Assembly: GCA_965215605.1 (NCBI GenBank)
Contig: OZ244070.1
Location: forward strand, 352,001 to 416,000
Source: an uncultured Candidatus Binatia bacterium
Lineage (GTDB): Bacteria > Desulfobacterota > Binatia > UBA9968 > JAJDTQ01
Direction: 5' to 3'
DNA length: 64,000 bases
The position numbers were made by a program. Positions 15,001 to 21,000 of this stretch are shown here, piece after piece; within the stretch, counting starts at the first letter, position 1, and the number at the start of each line of letters is the position of its first letter.

Positions 15001-18000
15001 CTGGCCCAGAGCCTCTCTTTCCTCTTCGTAGAGGTGCCGGGTCCACACCAGGCTCGACCAGTTGGGATCCGCGTAATACTCGAAGCAGGCCGCCTTGGCG
15101 TTCTCGAAGGCGTCCATGACGCTTTGCACGGCGAACGGATACTTCTCCAGCACCTCGTTCTTGAAGGCGACCACGTGCATGATGGGGTAGAAGCCGTTCT
15201 TGCGGTAGTACTTGAGCTCTTCGCCGCGGGGGTCGCGGAACAGGCGGCGGATCTTGTCCGAGCCGTCCACCACCTCGTCCGGCGGATGAGGCATCATCAG
15301 GGCGTCGATCTCGCCCCGCTCCAGCATGGCGCCGATGCTCTCGCCCTTCTCGAGGTAGCGGATGCTCACCCCTTCGGCCGTGATGGGCAGCGCCTCGGGC
15401 CGGTCGATGACCCAGTTGATCTCCCGCCAGGACACGTCGTACTCGCTCTGCAGGTCGCCCTTGGCCAGCACGGAGAGGGTCGTCTGGAACGTGCTCAGAC
15501 CCACGGTCCGGCCGACGAGGTCCTTGGGCGACTCGATGCCCGCGTCCACGTTGACCCACATCTGAGACAGGCTGAAAAGCCGCCGCGGGAACACCGGGAT
15601 GGCCTTGATGGGCATGTCGCGGCTCTGGGAGATGAGATACGAAGACAGCGACAGTTCGCCGATGTCGAACTCGCCCTGGAGCATGCGCTCGTGGCGCCGG
15701 GAACCGTGCCTCAGCGGGTGGGATTGGCCGACCTCCAGCACTTCGAGGTCCAGGCCCTCCGCGGTCACGCTTCCGTCCAGCAGCGGCACGTGCCTGTCGT
15801 AGTGGGACACGGCCATGGTCAGCTTGGGATCCGGCATGTGATCGTCGCTCCTTCCTCGCAAGGGTTGCACCGTGAATTGAAACGAGACTATACACTACCC
15901 CTATCGGCACAGCCAAACCTGACCGGCGCCCACCGCCGCACAGAGGAGGGACGGACATGGCCAGAATTCGCTACGTGGCCACCTTGAGCCGCGACCCCGA
16001 CGCACTGGCGGGCTTCTACACTCAATACATGGGGATGAAAGAATTGGGCCGCTCGCCGGAGGGCGACGTTTCCCTCACCGAAGGCCTCTACAACCTCACC
16101 CTGTTCCGCAAGCGGCAATCCCTGGGCGAGTTCCACATGCGCCGCGGACTGCATCACATCGGCCTCCAGGTGGAGGAACTCGGCGAGGTCCGGGCGCGCT
16201 ACCAGAGGTTCAACCCCAGGGGCGTGGTGGTGACCGAACCCGGGGGTCTGCACCACGGCGCCATCCGCATCTTCGATCCCGAGTGCAATCCGGTGACGCT
16301 GTCGGAAGGGAGCTTCGGCGTGGAGGAGGAAGGCGGGTACCCGCGCATCGCCCACGTCGCCTTCAACGCCTTGGACCCCGAGGTGATGCTCAACTTCTAC
16401 GTCCAGGTGCTGGGGCTCCGGGAGGTGGAAAGCAGTTACAAGCGGCGGCGCAGCGGCCTGCTCAACCGTTTCGCGGGCGACGGCTCCACCAACCTGGCCA
16501 TCCACCCGTTCTTCAACTCCACCGTGGGCCACGAACGCCGCTTCGGCGTGAACCACATCGGCTTCCTCGTAGACGATCTGGCCCGTAAGCTCGACGACCT
16601 GGGGAGCGTGGTGGCGGTCAAGGCGCGGCCGCCGGACCGGCCCTACGCCGAGTTCCGCTTCCGGGACCCGGAGGGGAACGCACTGGACCTGTCCCAGAAC
16701 AAGGGATGGGAGGTAGACATCGACAAGTGGGAACGGGCCGCCTGACAAATGATTCTACAAAGGCCGTTGCGCCGCAAATTGATGATAAACAAACGCCTTT
16801 TCTGAAAAAGGAGAACGAAATGGCCATCGAAGTCATGGATCTGATGGACAAGGGGCGCAAGGACCTCAAGCGCGAGGTGGTGTTGAACACCAAGCGCTTC
16901 CACACCTGGGTGCACGTCTATCCCGAGCCCGGCGACCGGGACGACATGCACTGCCACAACGCCGACCAGAGCTTCTACCTCATGGAGGGCGAGTGCACCA
17001 TGCACTTTCCGGACGGTGGCAAGGCCGTGATGACGCCGGGCATGGTGGCGCTCATCCACGGCGGCGACTTCTACCAGCTCGAGAACACGGGCGCCGGCCC
17101 GATGATCCTCATGGGCAACCGCTCGGGGCCGTCCGAGGACATCAAGCACATCAACTACGAGCTGCGCAAGGACATCAAGGAGTTGCCCAAGGAAGACCGG
17201 CAACGCATCGGCAAGGGCGGCCCGGTATACGTCACCAAGGCCGGCTAGACGTGGCTCTCGACTATCTTCCCATTCTGGCGGAAAACGCGGCCCCCAGGCC
17301 GCCGCGCAAGCTGTACCGCGCACCCCGCATCGGGTGGCAGCCCCTTGCGCGACCGCTGAACGAGATGCGCGTGAGCCTCGTGACAAGCGCGGCCATCCGC
17401 CAGCCCCGCCAGCGTGCCTTCACCGCGGGAGGCGACGCGAGCCACCGCCGCATCGGCGCGGACCCGGGCATCGAGGTCACCGTCGACCATCACTCTCCTG
17501 TCGGCAAGGACGTGCGCAGGGATGCCGAAGTGGTCTTCCCCCGGCGGGCGTTGCGGGAGCTGGCGCGAAAGGGGGTGATCGGCAGCGTGGCTCCGGCTCA
17601 CTTCTCTATCTACGGCGGCATCGGCGACCACGCCGCCATCACCGAAGGGCTCGCGCCCGAGTTGGCGCGGAAGCTCGCGGCCATGCGGGTGGACCTGGCG
17701 TTGATGGTCCCCTACTGACCCTACTGCCACGAGACCGTGAGTCTCGTCGCCAACCTGCTGGAGGCTTCCGGCATACCCACGCTCCTGATCGGCACCGTGC
17801 GCGACATCGTGGAGCGGGTCAAGCCCCCGAGAGCGGTGTGCGTGGACAATCCCGTGGGGCGCACGTTCGGACGGCCGCGGGCGGGGCGCCGGCATGAAGC
17901 GCTGTTGGCCGAAGCCCTTGGGCACACTCCCGCGTTCAAGCGCAAGGGGCGGATCATCGACCTCCCGGGAAACTGGACCGACCGTCCCGGCGCCTCATGG

Positions 18001-21000
18001 CCGGACATGGTGCGGCGGGAGATCCTGCGGCTGAAACGACGGTGAGATTCCTTTGTCGGCGGGACCAGGCACCGCGCCCCGAACCCCGCCCTGCCCCGCA
18101 CTAGATCCGCTGCCCCGACGCCGAGTCCTTCAACACCTCGTAGGCCCGCAGCCCCACTGCCAGGTCCATGATTCCCAACCCTTGAAGCTTGAACAACGTG
18201 ATCTCCTCGGGCGTCGTCCGTCCCGGGGCGTTTCCGAGGATCACATCCCCCAGCTCGCACACGCCGTCCCAAGTGAGCACGCCGTCCCGGACGGCCCGGA
18301 ACACGTCGCTTTCGTTGGCCTCCACGGTCGCCTTCGAGGTGATGCAGACCCGCCCGGACCGGGTCATGGTATCCTGGTCGATCTCTTCCCGCACCCGGGT
18401 GCTGTCACCGTTGGCGATGGAGGTGACGTGCATGCCGGGACGGAGGCGGCGGCCATCGAACACCGGGGTTTGCGCGTTGGTGGCCGTAATCACGATGTCC
18501 ATTCCCTCCAGCGCGTCTTCGGGACTGTCCGCCACCGTGACCTCCACTTCCAGTGCATCGCGGACGCGGTCTGCGAATCGGAAACGATGCTCCGGGGCGC
18601 GGCTGAAGACACGGACGGTATCGATGGGTCTCACCGCGCACACCGCCTGGAGCTGGGTGAAAGCGTGCTTCTCGCTGCCGATGACCGCCACCCGGCTGGC
18701 GTCCGGGGGTGCCAGGTGCTTGGCGCCGACGCCGCCGGCCGCGCCGGTGCGAAGCTCGTTGATGGCGCAGTCCTGGAACAGGATCAGCGGTTCGCCGGTC
18801 TCGACGCTGTAGAGGATCACGGTCTCGTGGTGGATGGCGCGGTCCCGATCGGTCTGCAGGTAGGCCCCCATGACCCCCTTGAAGGAACCCGGCAGCACCC
18901 CGAACAGCATCCGGTTGGCGTGATGGATGCGCCGGCGCGGCAGCACCACGGCGTTGCCGCGGGAGGTCTCGGCGAGGCTCTCCTCCACCGCCTCGATGGC
19001 CTGGACCATGGGAATGATGGTCTCCACCGGCGTCTCTTCAAGGAACAGCATGGATGGGTCTCCCGTTTCCGTATGCGAGCCGCCGTCAGCACTGGGACCG
19101 CGGCCCGCGGGCCTGTCCGGCGCAGTCTGCCATCCCTTGAACTGCCCGTCCAGGAGCGCTATTCAAGACCTTGACCGCTTGTCGTTTCGGCGCACCGTCG
19201 AGTCCGGGCCATCGCCACGGCCCGTCCGCTGTCGGGCTGGTGCCGCTGCCATCCATACAGGAGGAATCCCATGGCCATTAACGGTACCAAGGTCATCGAC
19301 CTGGACAGCCATCTGGTGGGAGACGTGAGCAACTGGAAACACTGCATCGAGGAGGAGTGGAGGGATCAATTGCCCCGGCCGCTTCCGACCAGACCCGACG
19401 AAAGGCGCAAGACCCTGGTGGGATCCCGCATCATGGTGGGCTCGGAGGTGACGCGGCAGAGCGGCGAAAAGCCCCAGTGGCACAAGGCGGAGGATCTGGC
19501 GGCCGGAGGCCGGGTGCGGAACCTCGACAAGGACGGCATCGACGTGGCCGTGCTCTCGCCCAACTCACCCGCGCTGGACCTGGTTTGGTTTCCGGAAGAC
19601 CCGGAGCTGGCGGCGGCCTATTGCCGGGCCCAGAACAACTACATGCGGCAATACGCCGGCGAGTTTCCGGAACGGCTGCAATGGGCGGGCGTCATCCCTT
19701 GGCAGGACGTGGACCTGGCGGTCAAGGAACTGCACCGGATGGCGGACATGGGCAACCAGGCCCTCAACATGAAGGCGGTGCCGGTGGCCGGACGCCTGTG
19801 CTGGGACCCCTACTACGATCCCATCTACGCCGAACTGGAAAACCTGAACTGGCCGATCATCGTCCACGACACCAAGCACGAGTCCATGGGCCAGGAACGG
19901 TTCGCCGACAACTTCTTCTTCTCGCACATGGTCGGGCGTGTCTTCGAGTCCATGGTGTGCATGATGTCGTTCATCTGCGGCGGCGTGCTGGAACGGTTCC
20001 CGAAGCTGAACCTCGTGTGCCTCGAGACCGGCGCCTCCCAGATGCCGTGGTGGCTGGGGCGCATGGACGAGCACCATGAGAAGCTGCCGCACCTGGTGCC
20101 CTGGCTCAAGATGAAGCCCAGCGAGTACTTCATGCGGCAGGTGTACGTCGGCTGCGAGCCGTTCGAGGACGAGCACTTCGAGGTGGCGGTGGAGATGCTC
20201 GGCGATGACAACCTCGTGCTGGCCACGGACACGCCGCACTGGGACTCTTCTCCTCCCGGCACGGTGACCCGGCCAATCCTGGAGAGCGACAAGCTCACCG
20301 AAGAGAACAAGCGCAAGATCCTGGGCGCCAACGCGGCCCGGATATTGAACTGAACCAGCACCCTGAATCAGCATTCACGCAACGCGAACCAACCGGAGGT
20401 GAACCTTGGCCTATCAGACAGTCGGAAAGCCCATGCCCCGCATCGAGGGCGCGGATAAAGTCACCGGCGCCACCCGCTACGCCGCCGATCTGCCCATCCC
20501 CGAATCCCTTTACGCCAAGGTGCTCCGCAGCCCGCTGGCCCACGCGCGAATCCGCAAGATCGACACCGCCCCGGCCAAGGCGCTACCGGGCGTCCACGCG
20601 GTTCTGACCGGCGCCGATCTGCCCGAGGTGTACGTCGGACTGCGGATGAAGGACATGCCCGTGCTGGCAACGGACAAGGTGCGGTTCGTGGGCGACCCGG
20701 TGGCCGCGGTGGCCGCGGATACGCCCGAGATCGCCGAGGCGGCGCTGGGCCTCATCGAGGTCGACTATGAGGAACTGCCCGGGGTGTACGACCCGCTGGA
20801 GGCGGTCAAGCCCGGTTCTGCGGCGCTCCACGACGCGCCGCGCGACTACAAGAACGCGCCGCCGCTCGCGGAGGGCGTCGACCCGGACCGGCCCAACGTC
20901 CAGTCCCACAGCATCTGGCAGAACGGCGATACCGACGGCGGCTTCGACAACGCCGACCGGGTGTTCGAGGGCACCTTCGCCACGCAACTGGCGCACCACG

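Follow-up and report, generated by a model that had tools for sequence, protein, structure and literature searches.

A PrdB-like selenoprotein with a conserved in-frame UGA in Candidatus Binatia

The locus and its surroundings

The window, a stretch of 64,000 nucleotides from an uncultured Candidatus Binatia bacterium, carries a PrdB-family gene with an in-frame TGA, preceded by two genes on the same strand (Table 1). In translation this TGA is the only one inside the frame, in the context VPY-U-PYCH. The preliminary description had read two split ORFs as one 264-codon gene with Sec at codon 156, which translation and the conservation of the TGA bear out, and had flagged the start codon as uncertain. 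The start now has support: its position is conserved and the aligned codon is ATG in many orthologues (8 of 22 in the same genus, 7 of 7 in the sister family), with a stop a few codons upstream of it at several orthologous loci. At the other end, 26 of 30 orthologues terminate with TGA, which is therefore still a stop in these genomes.

Table 1. Features of the selenoprotein locus (positions within the window)
Feature	Position	Strand	Detail
Two-domain VOC/glyoxalase-family gene, first of the same-strand run	15957..16745	+	Pfam Glyoxalase, E 6.4e-20
Cupin_2 gene, directly upstream of the selenoprotein gene	16706..17248	+	Pfam Cupin_2, E 3.1e-8
PrdB-family selenoprotein CDS	17251..18045	+	264 codons plus TGA stop, GTG start; translation, TIGR04483, orthologues
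In-frame UGA read as Sec, codon 156	17716..17718	+	First residue of U-P-Y-C (UxxC)
SECIS-like hairpin	17729..17747	+	7-bp stem, 17729-17735 with 17741-17747, loop CGUGA

The stop codon of the Cupin_2 gene, whose true start may lie some 30 codons further in, is 3 nt before the GTG, and the two genes are probably co-transcribed; the VOC/glyoxalase gene appears to belong to the same operon. Within the genus this arrangement is stable, with the Cupin_2 gene upstream in 21 of 22 loci and the VOC/glyoxalase gene present in 19 of 22. Beside sister-family orthologues no Cupin_2 gene was seen, and the neighbourhood differs by clade: the genus has VOC and cupin genes, the sister family has TctC-like genes, and further clades have others. 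Binding-protein genes of the TctC/Bug-like type, one or two per locus, lie within 400 nt downstream on the same strand in 22 of 51 loci, and two loci of genus g6 have a gene for an HdrD-like CCG-domain protein downstream. Among the adjacent genes, to which this comparison extended, no prd-type operon context (prdA, C, D, E or F) was found; the neighbours encode VOC, cupin, OCD/mu-crystallin and Amidohydro_2 proteins. Such recurrent neighbours are weak evidence, because the genome has 101 Amidohydro_2 and 30 OCD/mu-crystallin genes and chance adjacency is likely.

Decoding of UGA-156 as selenocysteine

The TGA falls in one and the same column at all 30 related loci and at all 18 loci of a second set, and neither TAA nor TAG ever replaces it (48/48 loci, 25-100% identity). 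Among the 101 genomes of the order that we searched, 63 (one of them, G092, an unpublished genome) yield a full-length match at E <= 1e-60, and every one of these matches contains the internal TGA, so that the order-wide conservation reported earlier holds. Nucleotide diversity at codon positions 1/2/3 across the 30 loci is 0.264/0.170/0.421 upstream and 0.199/0.144/0.393 downstream of the TGA. This agrees with the earlier claim of coding on both sides, and the downstream part shows the signature of purifying selection in the same frame.

The aligned residues tell the same story. Cys stands at the Sec column in 109 of the 138 homologues that cover the site among the best 149 of 4006 profile matches, and in 7 of 7 aligned full-length homologues, as previously described. 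Sec156 shares one exact alignment column with the Sec residues of the genome's three GrdB paralogues, a match that had been proposed for the genome's GRDB protein and that we recover for all three. The same genome encodes two tRNA-Sec genes, SelA and SelB, and a TGA-containing GrdA.

The hairpin that had been noticed downstream of the TGA is upheld by both minimum-free-energy (MFE) folding and covariation. The helix begins 11 nt past the UGA, and the loop includes GU. Numbered from the U of UGA, nt 14-20 pair with 26-32 and nt 11-12 with 34-35 in the MFE fold, the latter adding outer pairs (17726-17727 with 17749-17750) to the stem; its energy of -21.9 kcal/mol (z -2.26) is reached by 7 of 200 shuffled sequences. 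Among 35 distinct sequences, 4 of 8 pairs show changes on both sides and 92.1% of cells pair, compared to only 28-41% in slid controls. In the ten codons that follow the TGA, third-position diversity is 0.064, compared with 0.298 for the remainder of the gene, and only 4 of 249 windows are equally low; synonymous sites in the hairpin region are frozen. A search of Rfam returned no family matching the hairpin at a useful score.

On this comparative evidence, UGA-156 is predicted to be read as Sec, aided by the hairpin, and Sec156 and Cys159 would form a U-x-x-C pair where GrdB carries its Sec. The data confirm the locus as a genuine predicted selenoprotein of 264 residues, which standard gene callers split at the UGA. 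Public databases reflect this cut: 55 of 68 database homologues measure 154-163 aa, and 50 of these 55 are at least 51% identical and end exactly at the TGA. Those that are named are called "hypothetical protein", so that the truncation and the naming described before are both borne out. The same UGA truncation error recurs across most genomes of a whole Binatia order.

A member of the PrdB/GrdB superfamily away from its usual partners

The NCBIfam PrdB model TIGR04483 matches the protein over positions 16-234 of 238 (E 2.2e-36, 125.5 bits; 119.8 bits in the genome-wide scan), with a score below the cut-off of 300. Two further models also stay under their thresholds, Pfam GRDB (PF07355) at 18.9 bits (E 0.001, cut-off 22) and TIGR01918 at 31.9 bits against 65.45, while close homologues exceed the PF07355 cut-off (e.g. 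P0073 at 43.8 bits). The earlier view of a distant GrdB/PrdB relative that goes unrecognised is thus right for Pfam and needs amending for NCBIfam, whose PrdB model matches the whole length, albeit below the equivalog cut-off. Judged by homology, the protein is a member of the PrdB/GrdB (selenoprotein B) superfamily, equivalent to PrdB, i.e. to the C-terminal part of GrdB.

The family profile gathers 4006 cluster representatives at E <= 1e-3. Among the best 149 of these, the 138 that cover the site have CxxC in 98 cases and E171 in 137, and R194 is found in all 128 that cover that residue. Charged residues far from the UxxC (D91, D148, E171 and R194) are strongly conserved, and 2 of 36 long homologues carry the domain as a fusion, placed behind an AMP-binding (carboxylate-adenylating) enzyme. 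The AlphaFold model has a pLDDT of 93.5 and a pTM of 0.92. Foldseek gave 0 matches in the PDB at E <= 1e-3, a PDB sequence search gave nothing meaningful, and the best hits of a wide VIA-align search (Z 8.1, rmsd 4.4, 142 aligned residues), LacI-type/Rossmann-like alpha/beta domains, fall within the tool's stated background.

Among the closest known systems is the clostridial D-proline reductase, whose 26-kDa subunit PrdB (TIGR04483) is of the same length class (264 aa here versus a 238-position model) and homologous end to end; it also shares the placement of Sec in a U-x-x-C at the homologous site, with a SECIS hairpin downstream. UxxC is likewise the motif tabulated for this family in PMC13188914. 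Unlike clostridial PrdB, the Binatia protein scores far below the equivalog cut-off, has no PrdA that we could find and no prd-type neighbourhood, and comes from a Candidatus Binatia MAG rather than a Stickland fermenter; relatives carry the gene without any GrdE/PrdA-family match. On this comparison, the gene is not a canonical D-proline reductase component. In the glycine, sarcosine and betaine reductases, the C-terminal ~230 residues of GrdB, GrdF and GrdH (PF07355, TIGR01917/01918) are homologous, with Sec aligned. The Binatia protein differs from GrdB in missing the N-terminal ~200 residues and scoring below the PF07355 cut-off, and its gene, unlike all three GrdB genes of the genome, is not beside GrdE and persists in genomes without a GrdA match.

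The preliminary description had left the search for a partner such as PrdA to be done. The PrdA model TIGR04480 reaches at best 25.7 bits in the genome itself (cut-off 700) and has no match in four others (G028, G036, G038 and G060). Five orthologue-bearing genomes, all drafts that are 95-99% complete and in which absence is not proof of absence, gave 0 matches to PF09338 (the GrdE/PrdA family) in 5 of 5 cases and no match to GrdA in 5 of 5; the same searches found four PF09338 genes and one GrdA in the home genome. The PrdB-like protein is kept, in other words, in genomes where no PrdA, GrdE-family or GrdA gene was found. At the home locus no PF09338 gene adjoins the selenoprotein gene, whereas each of the three GrdB genes adjoins a GrdE gene. 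The fourth GrdE-like gene (contig 2097377-2098675) has no GrdB beside it and is surrounded by SDR, Amidohydro_2 and TctC-like genes; it could act as a remote partner.

All our tests agree with a single Sec-containing, PrdB-like protein for which no PrdA was found. The term "orphan" used before overstates the novelty, since catalogues have listed UxxC PrdB proteins from organisms other than Stickland fermenters from 2005 onwards. In passages of the marine and deltaproteobacterial surveys by Zhang and Gladyshev (2005-2008), a "Proline reductase PrdB" family appears with 42 UxxC genes from the Sargasso Sea (PMC1088965), with 235 forms in GOS that have Sec and 110 that have Cys (PMC2398784), and with forms in Anaeromyxobacter and Geobacter (PMC1794560). 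As described there, the family shares with our protein the UxxC, the pfam07355 relationship, the coexistence of Sec and Cys forms and a non-clostridial or environmental origin (see also PMC1976440), a likeness to the Binatia clades by description and not by sequence; the missing PrdA is not discussed in those passages. The Binatia gene adds to this already catalogued type of selenoprotein and comes with an annotation fix, in that its coordinates, Sec codon and SECIS model correct the public annotation (155 aa, hypothetical).

Possible modes of action

We consider it probable that the protein, as a real selenoprotein of the PrdB/GrdB superfamily, works alone, as a U-x-x-C selenol/thiol reductase whose substrate is a small carboxylate. 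The selenolate would attack a small carboxylate-bearing substrate, held by the invariant D91, D148, E171 and R194, at an electrophilic carbon or heteroatom, and Cys159 would then resolve the adduct, leaving a selenenylsulfide. Re-reduction of the enzyme would fall to a general thiol system, with thioredoxin as one candidate and, in one genus, the adjacent HdrD-like CCG-domain protein as another. The solute-binding-protein genes that adjoin in sister families suggest an imported organic acid as substrate. No pyruvoyl partner would be required if this acid were of betaine type (quaternary-ammonium) or another alpha-substituted acid activated in a similar way.

Alternatively, the U-x-x-C might only shuttle electrons, as in a GrdA- or thioredoxin-like redox carrier or a protein-disulfide-type oxidoreductase that cleaves no small-molecule bond. 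UxxC is indeed the classic thiol-oxidoreductase signature, and in a Gladyshev-lab catalogue PrdB is listed with the thiol-based redox motifs (PMC1088965). In some Betaproteobacteria the neighbours of Cys homologues are AhpC/AhpF (L106, L107), but this AhpC adjacency concerns 2 loci only, with divergent genes; the CCG-domain protein adjoins in 2 loci as well. The conserved residues distant from the UxxC resemble a substrate pocket more than they do a simple redox surface, and both the association with solute-binding proteins and the AMP-binding fusions point to a small-molecule acid, making a pure carrier rather unlikely.

Still less likely, in our estimate, is that the protein belongs, as selenoprotein subunit, to a two-part D-proline/glycine-type reductase whose pyruvoyl partner is encoded elsewhere in the genome, here by the fourth GrdE-like gene. 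To our knowledge, all family members with an established activity operate alongside a partner of the GrdE/PrdA type. The four PF09338 genes outnumber the three GrdB genes, and the surroundings of the unpaired GrdE resemble those of the PrdB-like gene in sister clades. Co-occurrence nevertheless fails both ways, because G003, G009 and G015 have an orthologue of the unpaired GrdE (79-86% identity) and no PrdB-like orthologue, while G047 has the PrdB-like gene and, as its best GrdE match, only a 61% paralogue. Furthermore, the two genes are never adjacent in 81 loci (30 + 51; a further 18 loci are copies of contigs largely covered already), and five orthologue-bearing genomes have no PF09338 match at all. 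A partner from an unrecognised family is conceivable.

Pairing is also how family members are presented in the sections of PMC13188914 and PMC10838667 that treat them. The latter deals with FarB/FarE, the fluoroacetate reductase of Cloacibacillus, in which a selenoprotein B homologue has moved to another alpha-substituted acid and Sec is the proposed nucleophile. FarB is described there as full-length and GrdB-like, with a GrdE homologue in one operon, in contrast to the PrdB-sized, unpaired Binatia protein.

That the TGA is a true stop, followed by a separate ORF (GTG 17737) or the remains of a decaying gene, is hardly credible: public calls do stop after 155 aa, and there is a GTG 7 codons past the TGA, but the invariant TGA column, selection on the downstream frame, the Cys homologues, the covarying SECIS hairpin and the encoded Sec machinery all speak against it.

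Returning to the stand-alone reductase, retention of the gene in near-complete genomes without detectable PrdA, GrdE or GrdA would therefore point to a second, partner-free mode of action for the family. We raise, as a speculative extension with a fairly low chance of being right, that stand-alone PrdB-like proteins form a distinct class of single-subunit, pyruvoyl-independent reductases that cleave C-N+ or C-X bonds next to the carboxylate in imported osmolytes or small acids. The class would span Sec forms in three Binatia clades and CxxC forms in Pseudomonadota, Acidimicrobiales and others, with betaine-type compounds, for which no Schiff-base partner is needed, as candidate substrates. If true, Stickland-type chemistry would have been carried into non-fermenting bacteria, and the presence of PrdB among the commonest selenoproteins in surface-ocean metagenomes would be explained. 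The abundance of PrdB-type UxxC selenoproteins where D-proline reductase makes little sense is an old loose end, which the Binatia gene sharpens, and the large CxxC branch within the profile set of 4006 cluster representatives offers easily expressed Cys forms for substrate finding.

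Reading frame, start and selenocysteine codon

Translation table 11 reads the PrdB-like gene as two ORFs, the first ending at 17718 and the second starting at 17737. Its start, held to be uncertain in the preliminary description, can now be fixed by alignment at 17251: ATG stands at the aligned position in 8 of 22 same-genus orthologues and in every one of the 7 sister-family orthologues of the first fetched set, the orthologues share a conserved N-terminus (M-[AP]-[LF]-[DE]-Y-L-P), and in several loci a stop codon lies 4-20 codons 5' of the aligned start.

Features discussed, in window coordinates unless a fetched locus (L) or contig C1 of the genome under study (G000) is named
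Feature	Location	Strand	Remarks
PrdB-like selenoprotein CDS	17251 (GTG) to 18043-18045 (TGA)	+	264 codons
Internal TGA, codon 156, in VPY-U-PYCH	17716-17718	+	sole in-frame TGA before the stop
SECIS-like hairpin, 7-bp stem, loop CGUGA	17729-17735 with 17741-17747	+	fold -21.9 kcal/mol, z -2.26
Cupin_2 gene	stop 3 nt 5' of GTG 17251	+	Pfam
VOC/glyoxalase gene	5' of cupin gene	+	Pfam
OCD/mu-crystallin gene	converging on PrdB-like gene	-	opposite strand
Helicase/nuclease-like gene	23669-26944	+	unrelated
tRNA-Sec genes, anticodon tca	G000 C1:259405-259499, C1:2086515-2086611		ARAGORN predictions
Three GrdE-GrdB pairs	G000 C1:683283-685868, C1:1886998-1889493, C1:3428297-3430932		GrdBs each with one TGA
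Unpaired fourth GrdE/PrdA-family gene	L057:8375-9676 (L057 = G000 C1:2089000-2107000)	-	no GrdB adjoining
Clade 2 gene, 293 aa, F-P-F-U-P-[AQ]-C-H-R-S, conserved C-terminal R-C-[NDQ]-C	L045-L050, about 7890-8870 in each		
Clade 3 gene, I-P-A-U-T-W-C-N-R-S	L051:7854-8729		
CCG-domain (HdrD/GlpC-like) gene, 422-423 aa	L096:3069-4340, L098:5310-6578	same as PrdB-like gene	genus g6, 92-95 nt 3'

Full-length matches (E <= 1e-60, counted by hand) were found in 63 of 101 genomes searched across the order, the unpublished genome G092 among them, and all 63 contain a TGA. This codon falls in one alignment column in 30/30 fetched loci (47-100% identity), and the column was kept again in 18/18 further loci, of which 11 are orthologues, 6 belong to a paralogous clade (~30% identity) and one to a third clade (25-28%). 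TAA or TAG never occur at the Sec column in these aligned loci. Since 26 of the 30 orthologues terminate with TGA, the codon still acts as a stop in their genomes. Diversity at codon positions 1/2/3 is 0.264/0.170/0.421 before the TGA vs 0.199/0.144/0.393 after it. All 7 full-length database homologues have Cys at the Sec site. Of the 149 best cluster representatives in a profile search against 1.84 billion proteins, 138 cover the site, and 109 of these have Cys there. The genome itself (4.06 Mb, 8 contigs, 66% G+C) carries two tRNA-Sec genes, SelA and SelB, plus a TGA-containing GrdA gene.

The stem of the downstream hairpin is retained over 35 distinct sequences despite clade-specific letters (GAGAC/GUCUC, GGUCC/GGACU, GCUCC/GGAGU). 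Paired cells amount to 92.1%, with both sides changed in 4 of 8 pairs, and neither the paired percentage nor the covariation score was reached in any of 500 shuffles; when the partners were slid by 1-3 columns as a control, merely 28-41% of cells paired. Within the genus, third-position diversity over the ten codons 3' of the TGA is 0.064 vs 0.298 in the remaining gene, a level matched by only 4 of 249 ten-codon windows; this is the mark of an RNA constraint overlying the coding sequence. An Rfam scan of 17000-18300 (E <= 10) gave chance-level matches (best 15.8 bits) and no curated SECIS family.

Four independent lines of sequence evidence, namely codon conservation, downstream coding, the covarying hairpin, and the Sec machinery and homologues, thus show UGA-156 to be a Sec codon. 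They confirm what had been proposed, a single Sec-containing gene running across the TGA, with the hairpin borne out by fold and covariation, and both the conservation of the TGA in the order and the Cys at the aligned site now extended to larger sets.

New clades of a known selenoprotein family

The Pfam GRDB model scores 18.9 bits against the protein, under its cut-off of 22, in keeping with the earlier statement that Pfam does not recognise it. The NCBIfam PrdB model, TIGR04483, matches end to end (positions 16-234 of 238, E 2.2e-36) but, at 125.5 bits, stays far below its equivalog cut-off of 300, and the three GrdB proteins of the genome align by their C-terminal parts, their Sec matching U156. 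The distant kinship to GrdB/PrdB therefore stands, and the alignment shows the U-x-x-C pair to occupy the GrdB Sec position. One of these GrdBs reads U-G-T-S-T-R-S from the Sec on and so has no Cys at the usual UxxCxxC positions.

At E <= 1e-3 the family profile retrieved 4006 cluster representatives, a number that falls to 1746 at <= 1e-10 and to 226 at <= 1e-30. Most are CxxC proteins 250-310 aa long (CxxC in 98 of the 138 covering the site); a P-x-C-P-x-C-H motif is common to them, and D91, D148, E171 and R194 are almost invariant. In the ESM Atlas, the clusters around the Cys homologue P0057 are labelled automatically, for instance as "glycine reductase family protein", and PF07355 is found in 14-53% of their members. 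The AlphaFold model (pLDDT 93.5, pTM 0.92) confidently predicts a single alpha/beta domain. No clear relative of this domain was found among solved structures: what a PDB sequence search turned up, a designed repeat protein, was spurious, Foldseek had no PDB match at E <= 1e-3, and a wide structural search found only generic alpha/beta matches (Z <= 8.1). The fold gave no functional lead.

In a scan of 36 long homologues, two, P0082 (805 aa) and P0076 (514 aa), were seen to join an N-terminal AMP-binding (acyl-adenylate-forming) enzyme to the PrdB-like domain, in gene calls that may be artefacts. Among other long forms, again as called, P0089 has an HTH domain and P0141 a protein kinase domain. 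UGSC is another UxxC selenoprotein family, known from ocean surveys. Past the CxxC, residues 255-314 of homologue P0151 match Pfam UGSC weakly and below cut-off (E 9e-4, 19.8 bits); judging from sequence, the two families may have a Sec-bearing module in common.

Two more Sec-containing PrdB-like clades (2 and 3) occur in the sister family, and each has a compensated SECIS stem of its own. "Proline reductase PrdB" UxxC selenoproteins have been catalogued in the Sargasso Sea (42 genes; PMC1088965), in the GOS data (235 Sec and 110 Cys forms; PMC2398784), in a gutless-worm symbiont (5 proteins; PMC1976440) and in Anaeromyxobacter and Geobacter (PMC1794560), and recent reviews enter the family with TIGR04483 and UxxC (PMC9312934, PMC13188914). 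Set against the passages and tables of these catalogues, the find adds to a known selenoprotein family a new member, or rather three new Sec clades, all in Binatia. In literature passages and tables we found no paper assigning a function to PrdB-like proteins without PrdA. What is added here is a corrected annotation of the gene, a SECIS backed by covariation and an explicit test that the PrdB family can occur in the absence of its classical partners.

Search for Prd and Grd partners

A partner such as PrdA, for which the preliminary description had made no search, was now looked for. The PrdA model TIGR04480 reaches at most 25.7 bits in our genome vs a cut-off of 700, and has no match in the four other carriers of the PrdB-like gene tested (G028, G036, G038, G060). 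In these four and in G044, all 95-99% complete, neither the GrdE/PrdA family PF09338 (E <= 0.01) nor GrdA has a match; as a positive control, both searches do match in our genome. It follows that the protein can be present where the entire Grd/Prd apparatus is missing. These genome searches show it to be independent of PrdA, GrdE and GrdA, and it is no subunit of a D-proline or glycine reductase, or at any rate no canonical one.

Besides one GrdA, our genome has four GrdE-family genes, three of them beside the three GrdB genes. The unpaired fourth could supply the second half of a two-part reductase, and it has an orthologue in most genomes of the genus. It lies 1.7 Mb from the PrdB-like gene, in a same-strand run of SDR, Amidohydro_2 and TctC-like genes with a TauD-family dioxygenase gene adjoining. 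We rejected this partnership on the grounds of co-occurrence, which fails in both directions: G003, G009 and G015 have the GrdE-like gene and lack the PrdB-like gene, whereas G047 has the reverse. The earlier observation as a whole is confirmed and its interpretation supported.

Gene neighbourhood and possible chemistry

Of 22 same-genus loci, 21 have the cupin gene, 19 the VOC gene and 17 the convergent OCD gene. The VOC-cupin-PrdB-like order is synteny among close kin, and the VOC-cupin pairing, confined to one genus, was rejected as a functional clue. OCD/mu-crystallin genes recur by PrdB-like genes in three clades and Amidohydro_2 genes in four; we dropped this adjacency as functional evidence and give it little weight because both are very large families in this genome, with 30 OCD/mu-crystallin (PF02423) and 101 Amidohydro_2 (PF04909) matches. 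In the sister family, one or two TctC/Bug-like solute-binding-protein genes follow the PrdB-like gene on the same strand; a member of this cluster is present in 27 of 51 loci, within 400 nt in 22 of these. TctC/Bug-like binding proteins are frequent around the loci studied. Neighbours in other clades include Amidohydro_2, TPP enzymes, NMT1-like binding proteins and GST genes, and an Asp/Glu/hydantoin racemase gene overlaps an Acidimicrobiales Cys homologue.

From the chemistry of the family (described in part in PMC13188914 and PMC10838667) we infer that the selenolate would attack the carbon adjoining a carboxylate and displace a leaving group, that Cys159 would then form a selenenylsulfide, freeing the reduced product, and that a thiol system would regenerate the selenol. 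The g6 CCG-domain protein is a candidate reductant for this selenenylsulfide. If no pyruvoyl partner takes part, one may speculate that the substrate already bears a good leaving group, e.g. a quaternary ammonium or a halide; gene context at most hints that it is an imported carboxylic acid.

Elsewhere in the window, an unrelated gene encodes a 1091-aa protein with an AAA_11/AAA_12 helicase and a C-terminal MTES_1575/DUF559 nuclease-like domain.
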